Origin: an archaeon
GTDB lineage: Archaea; EX4484-52; B79-G9
Direction: 5' to 3'
Assembly: GCA_043813875.1 (NCBI GenBank)
Contig: JBDRKP010000067.1
Coordinates: 1 to 58,707 of the forward strand
Length of the DNA: 58,707 nucleotides
Positions 24,001 to 30,000 of this stretch are shown in pieces (position 1 is the stretch's first letter; the number at the start of each line of letters is the position of its first letter). Position numbers: made by a program.

Positions 24001-27000
24001 ATCTTGCCCCTCTGAAACAACGTCTGCTGAGCAAGGCTCGTACCGAAAAACTCCACAAGATGCTTCTTTGTCCTCGCATCGCTCGCATTTGTCTCAATCA
24101 GATGATAATTCAGTTCACGCGCAATCGCCTGCACCATGCTAGTCTTTCCACATCCCGCAGGACCTAAAAGCAAAAGCCCTTTTTTCAGCTGATTCTTATT
24201 CCATTTCCGGACCCAGTCAAATACCTTGACCTTCTCTTCACCCACGACATCAGAAACATTTTTCGGCCTGTATTTTTCAGTCCATCCACCTGTTGGCTTC
24301 ATACATGATATTGGCATCTTATTTTTAAGTGCTTAATGACCTCTATCGGCAAAGCGCATAAAATACATATATAAAATCAATCAACAGAATAACAGAATAC
24401 ACAAAATGAAAGATCAGTCAATTAAACCCCAAAAAAATATACAACACAGAATATATATCCGGACACAAAAGAGTTTATATAGATTGGAGACACATATATC
24501 AGTACAACACCACATCTAGTGGTTTGGCAGGAAAATCACTACTATATATAGACGCCATATCATCCTTGAGGAGGGGAACCATTTGAAATGTCCGTACTGT
24601 TCATCTAGTGAAACGAAGGTCTTGGATAAAAGATTCACCGAAGATCTTGAAGTGAACCGCAGAAGAAGAGAATGTATCTCATGCAACAAAAGATTCACGA
24701 CCTACGAGAGGATAGAGACACACCCATTATTGATCATCAAAAAAGACGGCTCAAGACAGGAATACGACAGGAACAAGATCCTAAAAAGCATCCTCGTATC
24801 ATGCCAGAAAAGACCCATAAGCCAGGAATCCATTGAAAGGATCGTAGACGAAATCGAAAGCGAACTGCTGCACTTGGACACCCAGGAAGTCGAGAGCAAA
24901 AAGATCGGTAACCGCGTAATGAAAAAACTCAAGACATTAGATGACATTGCATACATCAGATTCGCATCTGTCTACAGGTCCTTCAAAGACATAGAATCAT
25001 TTGAACGCGAACTGCACAAGCTGAAAGTCGTAGGAGAGACGCAGAATACAGGCTCTGACTCAACAGACATACTCTTACAGGTCACAACAACATCAGAGGG
25101 AAAAATAAGCGAATGGAACAACGAGCGCATCGTAAGCGCCCTCATAAGAGAGATCAGGATCCCGCGCGACGAAGCCATAGAGATAGCCGATGCCGTTGAA
25201 AAAAAAGTATTCTCATCCGGGATCAAGACAATATCCGTGAGCCTCATACGCGAACTTGTAGACATAGAACTATTCACCAGAGGCTACGACAAGAAACTGG
25301 AAAAACAGGGAATCATAGGGATGCCCCATTATAACTTAAAACAGCTGATATTCAACAAAAGCAACGAAAACAGCAACGTAGCTGCAAACAACCCCGAAGC
25401 AGTCAACCTGGCGATCGCAGAAAACACACTGAAGCAATACGCACTAAAAGAACTATTCTCAGAAGACATATCCTCAGCACACATGAAAGGCGCAATCCAC
25501 CTGCACGACCTCGGATACCCGATCCGCGTATATTGCAGCGCGCACAGCCTCGAATACATAAAGAAATACGGCTTGAGGCTCATCAACCTCTCAACCACGT
25601 CAGCCCCGGCCAAACACGCAGGAACACTTACAGGCCACCTGAACACATTCCTCGCATCCATGCAAGCATACTACGCAGGCGCCCTCGGGATCAGCTACGT
25701 GAACATATTCTACGCGCCATACCTTGTAGGCATGAGCTACGAGAAGATGAAACAGGAAGCACAATACCTGATCTTCTCATGCAGCCAGAACGCGTTCTCG
25801 CGCGGCGGCCAGACATTGTTTATTGACTTCAACATACACTTAGGGATTCCAGGATATCTCAAAGATGTGCCGGCTATAGGCCCTGGCGGCAAATACACAG
25901 GAAAAGTCTACGCTGACTACGAAGAGGAAGCCCAGCAATTCGCAAAAGCGCTTCTAGACGTCTGGCGGGAAGGCGACGGCGAAGGCAAGCCATTTCCTTT
26001 CCCTAAATGCGACCTTCACGTAGACAAGACAACCTTCAGCGACCCGAAACAATACGAACTCCTGAAATACGCATGCCAGATAGCCTCAGAAAACGGCTCA
26101 CCATACTTTGTCTTCGACAGGGACGAAATAAACCTCTCCATGTGCTGCCGGTTGAGGACAAAAATAGTCGACGACTACGTAATCAAACACCCGGAAAGCA
26201 TGAGATTCTGCGGCTTCCAGAACGTAAGCATAAACCTGCCCCAGGCCGCCTACAGGGCTGGAAAAGGCAACCTTGAAGGCACAATATCTGAACTGCACAA
26301 AGCAATGAAACTTGCGGTAAAAGCCCACATACAAAAAAAGAAATTCATACAGAAACTGATGAGCGTCCCGGGCGCACCCTTGTGGCAGGTAGGCCAGATC
26401 GCCCCCGACGGCAGGCCATACATCGACCTTGAGACAGCCACCTACATACTAGGCATCATAGGACTCAACGAATGCGTAAAATATATAGTTGGTCAGGAAC
26501 TGCACGAATCAGAAGAAGCATACAGGACCGGCCTGAAAATAATCTCTGCCATGTACCTCAGATGCAAGGAATTCGAAAAAGAATACAGCCTGAAATTCAC
26601 TCTCGAAGAGACGCCCGCAGAAAGCGCATCCTTAAGGCTCGCAAAAATCGACCTGAAAGAATACCCCGAAAGCAAAGACTACATACGCGGCAACAAGAAA
26701 AAAGGAGAGATATATTACACGAACAGCGTACACTTGGCACCAGACGCACCGGTCGACATCATAGAAAGAATCGAAAGGCAATCCAAATTCAACACACTGA
26801 TCGAATCAGGAGCAATAACCCACGTGTTTTTAGGCGAGCAGAAACCGGATATGGGAAGCGTATTATCTCTGATCAAAAAGACATGGGATAACACCCAATG
26901 CGCACAGATCACAATATCCCCCGAATTCACAATATGCAATGATTGCCATAAACTATCCAGAGGTTACGCAAGAGAACAGAAACCTCAAACAAAGGCCATA

Positions 27001-30000
27001 AAAGATATGCCAAAAAAAGAGGGGGCGGTTGTAGCATGAACGAGACAGAAACAACAGAGACAGACATTCCGCGATGCCCGCACTGTGGAAGCACTAACGT
27101 ATACGGCATGAGCAGAGTAGTCGGGTATTATTCAAAAATCGATAATTGGAACAAGAGCAAAAAATCCGAATTCAAAGACAGGCAAAAAGGAAACTACAAG
27201 ATTTCTGAATTGTGATGACATGAAGATAAAGATATTCACAAAAGAAGACTGCCCTAACTGTCCGCCAGCCAGGGATCTCGGGAAAATACTGGAAGCCGAA
27301 GGTCTCGACGTAGAATACCACGACATATCTACGATAGACGGGCTGACAGAATCATCATACCACGGAATCATGTCAACGCCATCAGTTCTGGTCATCGGAA
27401 AAGACGGCAAAGAGAAGACAGGCTGGAGAAGCACCGTACCAGACATCAACGAAATTCGCCAGGTGCTCGGCAAATGATCGATGTAGACATAAGAGGGATA
27501 TTCAACACATCACTCATAGACTATCCCGGAAAGATCGTATCAACAATATTCTTCAACAGATGCAACTTCCGGTGTCCATTCTGCCATAACCCGGAACTTG
27601 CATTGGATAAAGACCAGAACAACCCGATAGATACCGAAAAAATCATAGAGCACCTCATAAAAAGAAAAAAATGGCTTGACGGCGTTTGCCTGACGGGCGG
27701 AGAGCCGACACTGCACAAAGGACTCACTGAATTTATCGAAAACATAAAAAAAGAAGGATTCCTGGTAAAACTGGACACAAACGGCACAAACCCGTCAGTC
27801 CTCAAAGCACTTATCAAAAAAAAACAGCTGGACTACATCGCGATGGACATAAAGACAAATCTGGAAGACTATGAGAATGTCGCAAAAGTCAGGGTAAACA
27901 AAAAAGACATCAAAAAGAGCATCGGACTGATTCAAAACAGCACAATAGACTACGAATTCCGCACAACCATCGTACCGCCATACTTCAACAAAGACAACCT
28001 GATCAATATATGCGAATGGCTAAAAGAATCAAGACTTTATGTACTTCAACAATTTAAAAATAATACAGCAATGATTGATATGACACTATCAGATGTGGCT
28101 CCATACCCACAGAAGACAATAATGGAATTTAAAGAAATTGCATCAAAATACTTCAAAAACTGCGAAGTACGAGGAATATAAAGAGGAGGCGGTATTAAAT
28201 GCCATATAAGATCACTATAGACGAAGAAGAATGCATCGGATGCGGTACATGCGCTGCACTATGCGACGAAAATTTCAAGATGGGCGACGACGGCAAAGCA
28301 AAAGTAAAAAACAAGACCGTGAACGAGCTAGGCTGCAACGAAGAAGCTAAAAACAGCTGCCCGGTATCATGCATCCACATCGACAAAGCATAGTGAAGCA
28401 GATGACCAAAGAAAAATGCATATGCACTCCACACGAACTATTAGAACAATACAAACAGGACAAAACAATCATAAAAGACCGGCTGAAAGAATTCAGAGAT
28501 ATGATGAAATCTTCCGACGAAACAATATTCTCAGAACTTGTTTTCTGCCTCTTCACCCCACAGTCGAGCGCAAAAAAATGTGACAGAGCCGTAAGACGCT
28601 TGATAGACGCCAACCTCCTGTTGGAAGGCGAGTCATCCGACATCGCAAAAGAAATAAGAGGTGTCCGCTTCCACAACACAAAATCAGCAAGAGTCATCAC
28701 CGCAAGAAACCAGTTCACAGAAAACAACCGCATAAGCATCAAAAAAAGAATAAACTCATACAGCGACAACTACGAACTAAGAGAATGGCTCATCAAAAAC
28801 GTAGACGGCCTCGGATACAAGGAATCAAGCCATTTCCTAAGAAATATAGGCCTTGGATTCGACATGGCAATACTAGACAGGCACATCTTAAACAACCTTA
28901 AAGCCCTCGATGTCATAGACTGCATCCCAAAAAGCATATCAAAGTCAAGATACCTGTCGATAGAAAGGAAGCTGATAGAATTCTCCGGAAAAATAGGACT
29001 CAGCCCAGCCGAACTAGACCTCCTCTTATGGTCAAAAGAGACCGGCGAAGTCTTCAAGTAGATTTTTAAACTTAATTGACAATAAAAATAACTGATTATC
29101 AAGTAAAACCACGTGAGAATATGACAATGATAAAAATCACCCGAAACATAAAAACGATCACATTGGGTGATAAAAATAACTAATTCTGCACCATATTCCA
29201 CAAAAAACAGACATATAAACACATCATCTCAGGAGTTGATATAAATGCCAACATTAAAAGGAGCCTATAAAAGAGGATGGCAGTCTGCCAGAAGCAGAGG
29301 CCACCAGTCGACAGTCACATGCGGATTTTGCGGACGCATGGTCCCGCGATATAAGACTTTCACGACATACAGAGGATTCAGGATAACCGACCCATTCTTA
29401 AGAAAAGAACTGGAACACTCTTCCACCTCTTTCAGCCAGGAAAAAGTCTACGCATGCCCCGCCTGCGCAAGACACAGATCCATAGTCCAGAAAAGAGACG
29501 AAACGGGCCACAAAGTCACGAAAAAAAGAAGAAGCACCAGATAATGTTCGTTGATCCACGATTCTCATCAAAGCCCTGAAAAATATAAGAAGTAGCACGA
29601 CTAATTAGTCATTGGAATAAAGAGACCGGTGATAATCACGCCCTTAAGAGGACTATTGAGAAGAAAATACGATCAATCAAAACAGGAAAAAAGGATCATC
29701 GATGAAGAGATAGCCCGATTCACAGTCAGAGACAGTGAAAAAATCATAGTTCTCCCTGAAACAAAAGGAACAGAGAACACAGATGTAGTCTACCCGCTAA
29801 TACCCCCCTTCGCTTACGCCAGAATCACATGGAACGAAGAAGAACAAGCACTGATTTACCGTGTAGACCAGCCAGAACTGGACGAAGACGAAAAAGATCT
29901 GCTTCACCTCATAAGCAAAGGATTGACAAAAACACTGGAAACAAACATCAGCATACTAAGAGAAAGAGAAACACTGCTTAAATACATCCAACAAAAAACA

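Follow-up and report, generated by a model that had tools for sequence, protein, structure and literature searches.

Class III ribonucleotide reductases (RNR) have been described as one-chain NrdD enzymes with an adjacent activase, NrdG (phage T4, 1H78; T. maritima, 4COI/4U3E; P. copri, 8P23). The chain consists of a barrel with finger-loop cysteines, four zinc cysteines, and a C-terminal glycine loop of the RVVGY type. An RNR whose catalytic chain is naturally encoded by two adjacent genes, the class II enzyme NrdJa/NrdJb of Pseudomonas aeruginosa, is said to have been described by Crona et al. in 2015, and there the split piece is not a radical-bearing domain. The finger-loop motifs of NrdD have been sorted into classes (MGCR or MCCR), and the double-cysteine MCCR group has been linked to thioredoxin-type reduction (PMC9669993). 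A 2026 review (PMC13450708) names formate lyases as the sole glycyl radical enzymes for which spare-part proteins are known, and leaves the matter open for the others. These spare parts, GrcA/YfiD of E. coli and Y06I of phage T4, are small free-standing proteins made of the glycyl-radical domain only, preceded by an N-terminus that varies and is probably disordered; the activase of the enzyme presumably activates them before they enter the large protein. Finally, free-standing NrdR (TIGR00244; 9FVR, 9FXK, 7P37) combines a Zn ribbon with CxxC pairs, an RRRR motif, D15, and R17 with an ATP-cone, and its regulated promoters carry paired 16-bp boxes.

The archaeal locus studied here shares features with each of these systems. 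Like one-chain NrdD, it encodes the barrel, the finger-loop cysteines, the four zinc cysteines, the glycine loop, and a neighboring NrdG. Unlike it, the chain is cut between the zinc knuckles, at about residues 687-693 of 8p23_A, the glycine is carried by another protein, of 59 aa, and the N-terminus bears a fused NrdR module. The division into two adjacent genes recalls NrdJa/NrdJb, although the RNR class and the cofactor differ. The survey's finding compared the small protein with GrcA/YfiD, aptly in view of what the review reports: it too is small, stands free, and carries the radical domain only. However, the 59-aa protein matches Pfam NRDD and not Gly_radical, its partner enzyme is different, and it would be obligate and not spare, because the sole NrdD body in the genome has no radical domain. 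Our literature search found no paper describing an NrdR-fused NrdD body with a separate 59-residue radical protein, nor one on either of these two features by itself.

Gene order and domain content of the locus

We analyzed a stretch of 58,707 nucleotides (the window, positions 1-58,707 of contig JBDRKP010000067.1, GCA_043813875.1) from an archaeon (GTDB Archaea; EX4484-52; B79-G9) whose genome is a metagenome bin of 1.64 Mb in 90 contigs. All genomes compared are metagenome-assembled. The survey placed the reductase genes at 24583..28181, which fits the ORFs found in the window. The features given below are on the forward strand, except for the NrdR boxes, which are given without strand. The first gene (24583..27039; ORF, Pfam, NCBIfam) has a TTG start and encodes an 818-aa NrdR-NrdD protein lacking a glycyl-radical domain, which we call the body. 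Its stop overlaps the start of the second gene (27036..27215), which encodes the predicted 59-aa glycyl-radical subunit and was recognized from its ORF, Pfam match, homologues, and mode of selection. Pfam and NCBIfam agree with the survey on the two genes that follow, an 85-aa thioredoxin-like protein with a CPNC motif, the likely reductant (27220..27477; Thioredoxin_3, 2.2e-07; Glutaredoxin, 2.4e-04), and NrdG, a radical SAM protein of 235 aa (27474..28181; Pfam Radical_SAM). The latter scores 209.1 bits against TIGR02495 (NrdG2, cut-off 131.15) and is the cognate activase, two genes downstream of the body. A small 4Fe-4S ferredoxin, a possible electron donor, comes next (28199..28393; Fer4_13, 9.5e-14).

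A profile search of the genome gave no NRDD match outside this locus, and PF02867, searched for class I and II enzymes, was found in none of the eight genomes of the genus (68-91.5% complete). The RNR of this locus is the only one found in these eight genomes.

In the body, the NRDD barrel spans aa 262-794 (25366..26964; 2.4e-119) and covers positions 1-519 of the 562 of the Pfam model, as the survey had given. The barrel scores 400 bits against PF13597 (cut-off 26.2), and the body reaches 374.9 bits against the NrdD family TIGR02487 (cut-off 326.35, NCBIfam). Between the NrdR module and the barrel we found a second ATP-cone that the survey had missed (about aa 171-238; 25093..25296; PF03477, 29 bits, cut-off 25.8). 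The finger-loop Cys-Cys, C521-C522 (26143..26148), is part of an MCCR motif (residues 520-523), which assigns the body to the double-cysteine group, and a redoxin gene adjoins. In an alignment of 46 split bodies this pair is invariant, along with more than 150 barrel positions and the first zinc knuckle, CNDC (C785 and C788; 26935..26946). The body was said to stop right after this knuckle; it runs 30 residues further, to residue 818. Its match ends at NRDD position 519, and the glycyl-radical loop is missing from the catalytic chain.

The missing part is found on the 59-aa protein, which matches NRDD positions 517-561 (3.2e-12), again the span given by the survey. It has no match to PF01228, the Gly_radical family of pyruvate formate-lyase type, and Pfam lists only NRDD and weak zinc-ribbon families. 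The second zinc knuckle, CPHC (C14 and C17; 27075..27086), and Gly30 of RVVGY, the predicted radical site (27123..27125), are both on this ORF as reported. The invariance of C14, C17, and R27-V-V-G30, noted before in 30 sequences, holds in the 32 homologues that we aligned, V28 and V29 included. The four predicted zinc-site cysteines, two per chain, are all invariant. By profile matches, the body and the 59-aa gene jointly answer to the definition of NrdD, and the body alone does not.

We consider it probable, at roughly 85%, that this locus is a working class III RNR operon with a naturally divided catalytic chain, operating by the following mechanism and repressing itself. One Zn(Cys)4 site, with two cysteines from each chain, would hold the body and the small protein together, and NrdG would place the radical on Gly30. 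The glycine loop would then insert into the barrel and hand the radical to the finger-loop cysteine, a docking proposed, like the zinc site, from homology and conservation. Finally, the neighboring thioredoxin-like protein would re-reduce the active site.

The NrdR module and its promoter

The survey described the N-terminus of the body as a whole NrdR module, with Zn ribbon and ATP-cone, fused to the NrdD barrel, and both Pfam (Zn_ribbon_NrdR at 1-42, 2.1e-16; ATP-cone at 50-136) and NCBIfam confirm this. The module (aa 1-147; 24583..25023) matches TIGR00244 over its full length (model positions 1-147 of 147; 175.4 bits, cut-off 124.65) and the solved NrdR chains in the PDB with an E value of 1.6e-35. 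We could not reproduce the 55% identity to NrdR reported earlier and count 64 identities in 147 positions (44%) in the alignment with chain 9fvr_A. NrdR of S. coelicolor contacts DNA with R12, D15, R17, R26-29, and R37 (PMC9110341). The module has K12, D15, R17, R26-R29, and R37, in a numbering that assumes the gap-free alignment to the solved NrdR.

The promoter of the operon contains two candidate NrdR boxes, scored against a consensus that we take to be that of NrdR: box 1, ACACCACATCTAGTGG (24507..24522), with 12 of 16 matches and its C and G 9 bp apart, and box 2, CTACTATATATAGACG (24539..24554), with 11 of 16. They are 32 bp apart, with a spacer of 16 bp, and box 2 ends 28 nt before the start codon; the position of each box and this last distance are kept in five congeners. 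Under the same presumed consensus, the pair at 24507/24539 is the only one at offsets of 30-33 or 40-43 in the 1.64-Mb genome. Box pairs in 480 kb of related loci are most frequent at offsets 31-33, with 10, 16, and 9 pairs, while other offsets have 0-4. Of the 28 related loci with an NrdR-type N-terminus, 25 have a pair upstream. A putative archaeal TATA box, TTTATATA (24474..24481), judged by the general archaeal consensus, is found within a block conserved in all six aligned upstream regions of the genus. The gene also has its own Shine-Dalgarno sequence, GAGGAGGGG (24568..24576), and the 3' end of the 16S carries CCTCC. For comparison, spacers of 14-17 bp are bound by NrdR (PMC12051234).

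The contact residues that are kept and the box pair in its own promoter support the view that the NrdR module still binds DNA. As with free-standing NrdR, we find paired 16-bp boxes with a 16-bp spacer, but here the module shares one reading frame with the enzyme that it would control, and rising dATP probably leads the enzyme to repress its operon. A separate nrdR gene was not found in the genome; in some relatives (L044), a stand-alone nrdR immediately precedes the body gene.

The junction and its alternative readings

The two ORFs meet in GCATGA, where the start codon (ATG, at 27036) overlaps the stop codon (TGA, 27037-27039), and the small ORF is in the -1 frame. This is the ATGA overlap described by the survey, and it is identical in all eight species genomes of the genus, always in the -1 frame and with GGAGG or GAGGGGG 10-11 nt upstream, while linker lengths vary by multiples of 3. 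In the window, this Shine-Dalgarno sequence is GAGGGGG (27019..27025; GGAGG in congeners); it is kept in the eight genus members, and its position lies in the range, -16 to -12, where GGAGG peaks in the genome. Genome-wide, SD-like motifs precede 182 of 1607 long ORFs, compared with 43 of 1607 at a control position. The overlap and the ribosome-binding site suggest coupled translation of the body and the small protein, and hence roughly matched amounts of both chains. A contig of 151 nt from a different study spans 26932-27082 without gaps and differs by 11 substitutions. In the one RNA run compared, no transcript reaches the junction. Purifying selection on the small ORF is strong: over 41 codons, the window differs from seven congeners by 12.5-17.5 synonymous and 1-5.5 non-synonymous differences, with a dN of 0.010-0.057, far below dS.

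The survey reported 105 clusters of homologues of the small protein, of 48-97 aa, a number that we recovered, and 101 of them start with M. It counted 3 split loci in 34 at the DNA level, which is far too low, as 43 of 80 genome loci are split with an adjacent body, 12 have lone small genes, which lack a body motif within 900 nt, and the other 25 loci are fused. The split loci differ in relative frame (20, 11, and 12) and in stop codon (TGA 22, TAA 18, TAG 3), and an SD-like motif lies before a start in 37 of 55 small ORFs. Among the 120 listed barrel relatives, most indeed lack the radical domain, although the counts of 98 without and 22 with it become 97 and 23 when R..G[YFW] is sought after the first CxxC. 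In the barrel tree, the split or fused state switches at least four times on well-supported branches.

These data bear on three other readings of the locus. Expression might join the two frames, either through a programmed -1 ribosomal frameshift or because transcription slips on the A-run, with a one-chain NrdD as the main product. This would agree with CCA AAA AAA at 27010-27018, a slippery pattern in frame 0, and with the small ORF being in the -1 frame, open from 26952. However, the run of seven A within it (27012..27018), which we judge incidental, is present in only four of the eight genus members, and L004 is devoid of any slippery heptamer. In the related 151-nt contig, 27012 A>C breaks the run with the frame unchanged, and 27023 G>A improves the Shine-Dalgarno sequence. 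Predicted folding of the 82 nt downstream is not stronger than that of shuffled sequences (z +0.89; 165 of 200 shuffles as good), and it is the Shine-Dalgarno motif and the ATG that are conserved instead. In other lineages the two genes are set apart by in-frame stops, by +1 offsets, or by up to 527 nt (from body stop to the first Cys codon of the small gene), and some small genes are unlinked to the body. No single recoding mechanism fits all these cases, and this variety of frames, stops, and spacing argues against recoding as the rule. Joined expression is an unlikely explanation of the locus, while a minor fused product of frameshift or slippage at 27012-27018 could occur.

That the split results from a miscounted homopolymer, in assembly or sequencing, or from a decaying pseudogene is barely credible. 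One more A in the run would fuse the frames, and we work with a metagenome bin of 90 contigs, but the arrangement is common to eight independently assembled species genomes, and contigs from two runs, including one of another study, span the junction without gaps. Also against it are the low dN of the small ORF and the fact that the locus holds the only RNR found in the eight genomes of the genus. We also regard as very improbable that the body now only senses nucleotides as a regulator, its NrdR joined to a dead barrel, with the small protein serving another partner. The complete repressor module and its cognate boxes would suit such a role, whereas the score of the barrel exceeds the curated cut-off for NrdD, its finger-loop cysteines and more than 150 positions are invariant across the 46 split bodies, NrdG and a redoxin are co-encoded, and the eight genomes of the genus yielded no second reductase. 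The two-gene interpretation is favored by the junction shared by eight species, the contig free of indels, purifying selection, the Shine-Dalgarno motif with its ATG, and the varied geometries elsewhere.

Possible exchange of the radical protein and other arrangements

Glycyl-radical proteins are cleaved by oxygen at the glycine, so that replacement would be needed for the 7-kDa subunit only and not for the 94-kDa enzyme. We tentatively propose, with somewhat less than even confidence, that the 59-aa protein acts as a radical cartridge that can be exchanged, activated off the enzyme by NrdG, clipped on via a zinc shared by the two chains, and replaced after oxygen cleavage, while the NrdR module of the body shuts the operon at high dATP. 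If this were so, class III reductase would be repairable, as GrcA makes pyruvate formate-lyase repairable, and one protein would sense nucleotides, catalyze, and control its own gene. The extra unlinked cartridge genes of relatives would be a spare-part version of the device, and the cartridge-only genes on viral contigs a host-takeover version.

The simple zinc site with two cysteines from each chain may fail in some body types, as 11 of the 120 listed bodies carry their own second CxxC and the small protein also has a CxxC. Besides the NrdR box pair, our analysis newly identified, within the same order, further ways of splitting the enzyme and a fused NrdD accompanied by an additional radical protein. 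Both favor a radical domain that works in trans. In one genus of this order, the bodies have 666-671 aa and match NRDD from position 1 to 534-540, ending just before the glycine, which is on an unlinked, Cys-free protein of about 105 aa. Another relative of the order, G025, has a full-length NrdD and an extra radical protein of 113 aa whose core closely matches its own NrdD tail, a true spare of the GrcA type.

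Layout of the operon and the divided reductase

Four closely packed genes, all on the + strand, occupy positions 24583-28181. The first open reading frame, nrdR-nrdD (24583-27039, TTG start), encodes an 818-aa protein, the body, in which Pfam places a Zn_ribbon_NrdR domain (residues 1-42) and an ATP-cone (50-136), followed by a second ATP-cone (residues ~171-238) and by an NRDD barrel (262-794) that corresponds to model positions 1-519 of 562. The body lies above the curated cut-offs for both NrdD (TIGR02487, 374.9 against 326.35) and NrdR (TIGR00244, 175.4 against 124.65, over positions 1-147 of 147), and solved NrdR chains match its residues 1-147 (E 1.6e-35). 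The second open reading frame (27036-27215, +) encodes the 59-aa glycyl-radical subunit; its ATG overlaps the TGA of the body (GCATGA) in the -1 frame. This protein matches NRDD model positions 517-561 in Pfam, and the sole match of a profile of its relatives against solved structures was the C-terminal part (residues 693-735) of the P. copri NrdD. The first zinc knuckle, CNDC (C785-C788), lies on the body, which then continues for 30 residues, and the second, CPHC (C14-C17), lies on the small protein together with the RVVGY motif and its Gly30. All four zinc cysteines are invariant in the sequence alignments, spread over the two chains. The operon continues with an 85-aa protein that has a CPNC motif and, in Pfam, a thioredoxin fold (27220-27477, +) and with NrdG2 (235 aa, 27474-28181, +; 209.1 bits against a cut-off of 131.15). 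A 64-aa ferredoxin (28199-28393, +; Fer4_13, 9.5e-14) lies 3' of these four genes. An Ogg glycosylase was also seen directly 3' of the operon, at 28369-29061.

No NRDD match other than this gene pair was found in the genome of the window (1.64 Mb, 91.5% complete), and the catalytic domain of class I/II enzymes (PF02867) was found in none of the 8 genomes of the genus (68-91.5% complete). The pair is thus the sole reductase found, with selection acting on it; judged from the sequences, it is both conserved and necessary. Together, the two genes qualify as a class III ribonucleotide reductase, of which the body alone lacks the defining glycine on its chain. The small protein can be likened to GrcA/YfiD in its presumed way of working and differs from it in being obligate here and in family, since Gly_radical of Pfam was not matched. 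According to a 2026 review (PMC13450708), spare-part proteins are known among glycyl radical enzymes for the formate lyases alone, and the review leaves the matter undetermined for the others. The split NrdD speaks directly to this question of whether enzymes other than pyruvate formate-lyase also have a radical domain that stands as a protein of its own. The present case would be stronger than that of a spare, because the enzyme is predicted not to work without its small protein. In full-text searches of the literature outside subscription journals and supplements, we found no description of a split NrdD, of an NrdD-type spare part, or of an NrdR-NrdD fusion.

In the mechanism that we propose, a shared Zn(Cys)4 site would clamp the body and the small protein, NrdG would activate Gly30 of the latter, and the glycine loop would dock in the manner known from one-chain enzymes. 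The finger-loop motif MCCR, together with the redoxin encoded next to the pair, points to a thioredoxin-type reduction, following the motif classes outlined in PMC9669993. The benefit, by analogy with YfiD, could be the cheap replacement of the radical domain after cleavage by oxygen, and perhaps an easier access of the activase; the same review passage (PMC13450708) mentions that YfiD is activated by PFL-AE as a free protein. The division offers a natural system to study how the glycyl-radical domain exits from the barrel to be activated and returns to it, and whether two chains can be joined by a zinc site.

The junction between the two genes

The main alternative to two separate products is a -1 frameshift that joins both frames at the run of seven A at 27012-27018. 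This run reads CCA AAA AAA in frame and the -1 frame is open from 26952, so it was weighed both as a slippery site and as a miscounted homopolymer. Only 4 of the 8 members of the genus have the A7 run, and the linker that precedes it varies by multiples of three bases. What the DNA alignment shows to be common to all 8 members is a start that overlaps the stop as ATGA in the -1 frame, with GGAGG or GAGGGGG just 5' of it, and a stand-alone small frame of 68-96 open codons was found in all 7 other species genomes of the genus. All of the genomes compared are metagenome bins. A contig of a different study spans 26932-27082 with 11 substitutions and no gap; one of these substitutions breaks the A-run and another makes the junction motif GGAGG. 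Another contig, which may come from the source sample, is identical over 26928-27137. The 82 nt located 3' of the run fold no better than shuffled sequences (z +0.89).

The motif at the junction has the features expected of a start signal. The 3' end of the 16S rRNA in this genome is CCTCC. Of its 1607 long ORFs, 182 are preceded by a Shine-Dalgarno-like motif, where a control position gave 43, and the genome-wide peak of GGAGG, at -16 to -12, coincides with the position of the junction motif. Over 41 codons of the small ORF, comparison of the window with the 7 congeners gave 12.5-17.5 synonymous and 1-5.5 non-synonymous differences. Given the conservation of the junction, the contigs, the folding, the Shine-Dalgarno motif and the selection on the small frame, we rejected the A-run both as a frameshift site and as a homopolymer error; the evidence goes against either reading, while a minor frameshift product may be made in the four species that have the run. 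The division of the parts between two chains, with a start signal proper to the small gene, is established at the level of the sequence. The one metatranscriptome run compared with the window covers only 27267-27304 and 27419-27500, outside the junction.

Spread of the split and other radical domains in trans

Homologues of the small protein form 105 clusters at 90% identity (48-97 aa), 101 of which begin with M, and C14, C17, S19, G24, R27, V28, V29 and G30, among other residues, are invariant in 32 aligned small proteins. Among the 120 nearest barrel relatives listed (66-100% identical), the glycine motif C-terminal to the first CxxC is absent from 97 and present in 23. Scanning one genome per species gave 80 loci: 43 split ones with a body directly upstream, 25 fused ones, and 12 with a small gene lacking a body motif within 900 nt. 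In the 43 split loci, the relative frame of the small gene is +2 (20 loci), 0 (11) or +1 (12), the body ends in TGA (22), TAA (18) or TAG (3), and the distance from the body stop to the first cysteine codon of the small gene ranges from 1 to 527 nt. With such varied frames, stops and distances, one recoding trick could not serve all geometries. A Shine-Dalgarno-like motif precedes the start codon in 37 of 55 small ORFs (among alternative starts, the one with the motif was taken). The labels of the split records include Nanohalarchaeota (the nearest relatives), Woese-, Micr-, Nano-, Aenigmat- and Heimdallarchaeota and some CPR bacteria; those of the fused loci are mostly Brocadia and other Planctomycetota.

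On a tree of the 120 barrels (quick maximum-likelihood search, midpoint root), the split or fused state requires 9 changes, and at least 4 of them are forced by well-supported branches; one such branch, with 99% support, pairs a fused protein with a split one as its sister. The two states interconvert, in keeping with functional equivalence. We also noticed a third type of body, of ~790 aa, in a single clade with 100% support (P0127, P0134, P0143, P0159 and 7 more proteins, with locus L105). These proteins have, after PEFT-CxxC, a C-terminal extension of 95-109 residues with its own second CxxC and further cysteines, and they lack a glycine motif. At the single locus that was examined, the body is still followed, 5 nt downstream, by a small radical gene; the labels are those of CPR bacteria. 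Other bodies are interrupted (G031:C49, P0161 and P0194): either the NRDD match is broken in two within one long frame, or PF14528/PF14890 (intein/LAGLIDADG) are listed. The interruptions are probably inteins in nrdD.

Thirty-eight genomes of the phylum are at least 70% complete, and NRDD was found in 31 of them. The split between the zinc knuckles occurs in the genus of the window (7 of 7 at this completeness) and in genome G037, where the junction has an in-frame TAA and a 3-nt gap. Other genera of the same order have other arrangements. The bodies of a second genus (666-671 aa in six genomes) cover Pfam model positions 1-534 to 1-540, and two of them, in G018 (666 aa, locus L117) and G030 (669 aa, L116), keep both CxxC pairs and end just before the radical glycine. 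Six genomes of this genus also encode an unlinked, cysteine-free protein of ~105 aa with the glycine loop, in unrelated neighbourhoods (L119, L121, L122, L028, L031, L032); this family comprises 11 clusters. In a third genus the bodies are 667 aa long, and the genomes also have frames of 52-54 codons that are unlinked to them. Genome G025 encodes a full-length NrdD of 719 aa and a separate protein of 113 aa, ~190 kb apart on the same contig (L115 and L123). The radical core of the 113-aa protein is a close match to the tail of this NrdD, which makes it a candidate spare in the sense of GrcA for a class III reductase. Plainly fused NrdD were found in seven genomes of four other genera.

Among the 80 loci, seven genomes have one small gene linked to a body and one or two more without a body within 3.5 kb. 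These extra unlinked copies (L046, L062, L064, L066, L069, L074, L075, L079, L101, L111) lie in recurrent neighbourhoods, with an HhH-GPD glycosylase 3' of three and a Roadblock/LC7 gene 3' of three others. In current annotations, bodies are labelled partial and small genes hypothetical or whole reductases, so metabolic reconstructions of DPANN, Asgard and CPR can misjudge the only route to dNTPs.

Viral contigs carry such pieces as well. A profile of the cysteine-free NrdD-type radical proteins of ~100 aa identified 65 small stand-alone frames on 80 viral loci of IMG/VR (L124-L203), 64 of which have no NrdD body within 6 kb, and five large viral records (G061-G065), two of them complete, have the radical piece only. 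The viral proteins had no PHROG match and align with just the final ~30 positions of Pfam NRDD, at scores under its cut-off; they are homologous over their full length to the archaeal ~105-aa family (hhalign, 99.4%).

The NrdR module and its putative boxes

We found no separate nrdR in the genome of the window. Elsewhere, a separate nrdR lies directly 5' of a split body without an NrdR module at two loci (L044:638-1120, in an operon that also has a dUTPase, and L040:2-406). The adjacency at L044 suggests how the fusion originated, and such separate pairs are likely its precursor or a derivative of it.

PMC9110341 describes R12, R26-29 and R37 of the Streptomyces coelicolor NrdR as DNA contacts, with D15 and R17 giving specificity; the equivalent residues of the body are K12, D15, R17, R26-R29 and R37. 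According to PMC12051234 and PMC9110341, NrdR recognises a pair of 16-bp palindromes in which the conserved G:C pairs lie 9 bp from each other; the spacer between the palindromes measures 14-17 or 24-27 bp. When the whole genome was scored against the box consensus, with a threshold of 11 of 16 matches and with the C and G required, 407 single boxes qualified and no more than 5 pairs lay at any of the offsets 18-59. The only pair with a canonical offset (24507-24522 and 24539-24554, offset 32) ends 28 nt before the start codon of the body. In 480 kb of related loci, pairs with at least 10 of 16 matches concentrate at offsets 31, 32 and 33 (10, 16 and 9 pairs, against 0-4 elsewhere); one box is a 16/16 match, and a pair occurs 20-250 nt upstream in 25 of the 28 loci that have an NrdR-type N-terminus and enough upstream sequence. 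With the contact residues kept and the boxes paired, the module has very probably retained DNA binding, with its own promoter as the target. By extension from bacterial NrdR, repression would respond to dATP. The fusion with its cognate boxes may represent an enzyme that responds to the product it makes by repressing the gene that encodes it.

Another candidate for the NrdR boxes was a set of AT-rich repeats with centres near 24454 and 24496, flanking the putative TATA box. It was dropped in favour of the boxes at 24507 and 24539, since congeners show a 14-nt difference in the distance between the repeats. A scan for promoters and terminators of bacterial type, which is unsuited to an archaeon, gave nothing above shuffled sequences. 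The divergent upstream neighbour (23109-24317, -) is an RFC-like AAA+ clamp-loader subunit, so that genes of replication and of dNTP supply share the 265-nt intergenic region with the NrdR boxes.
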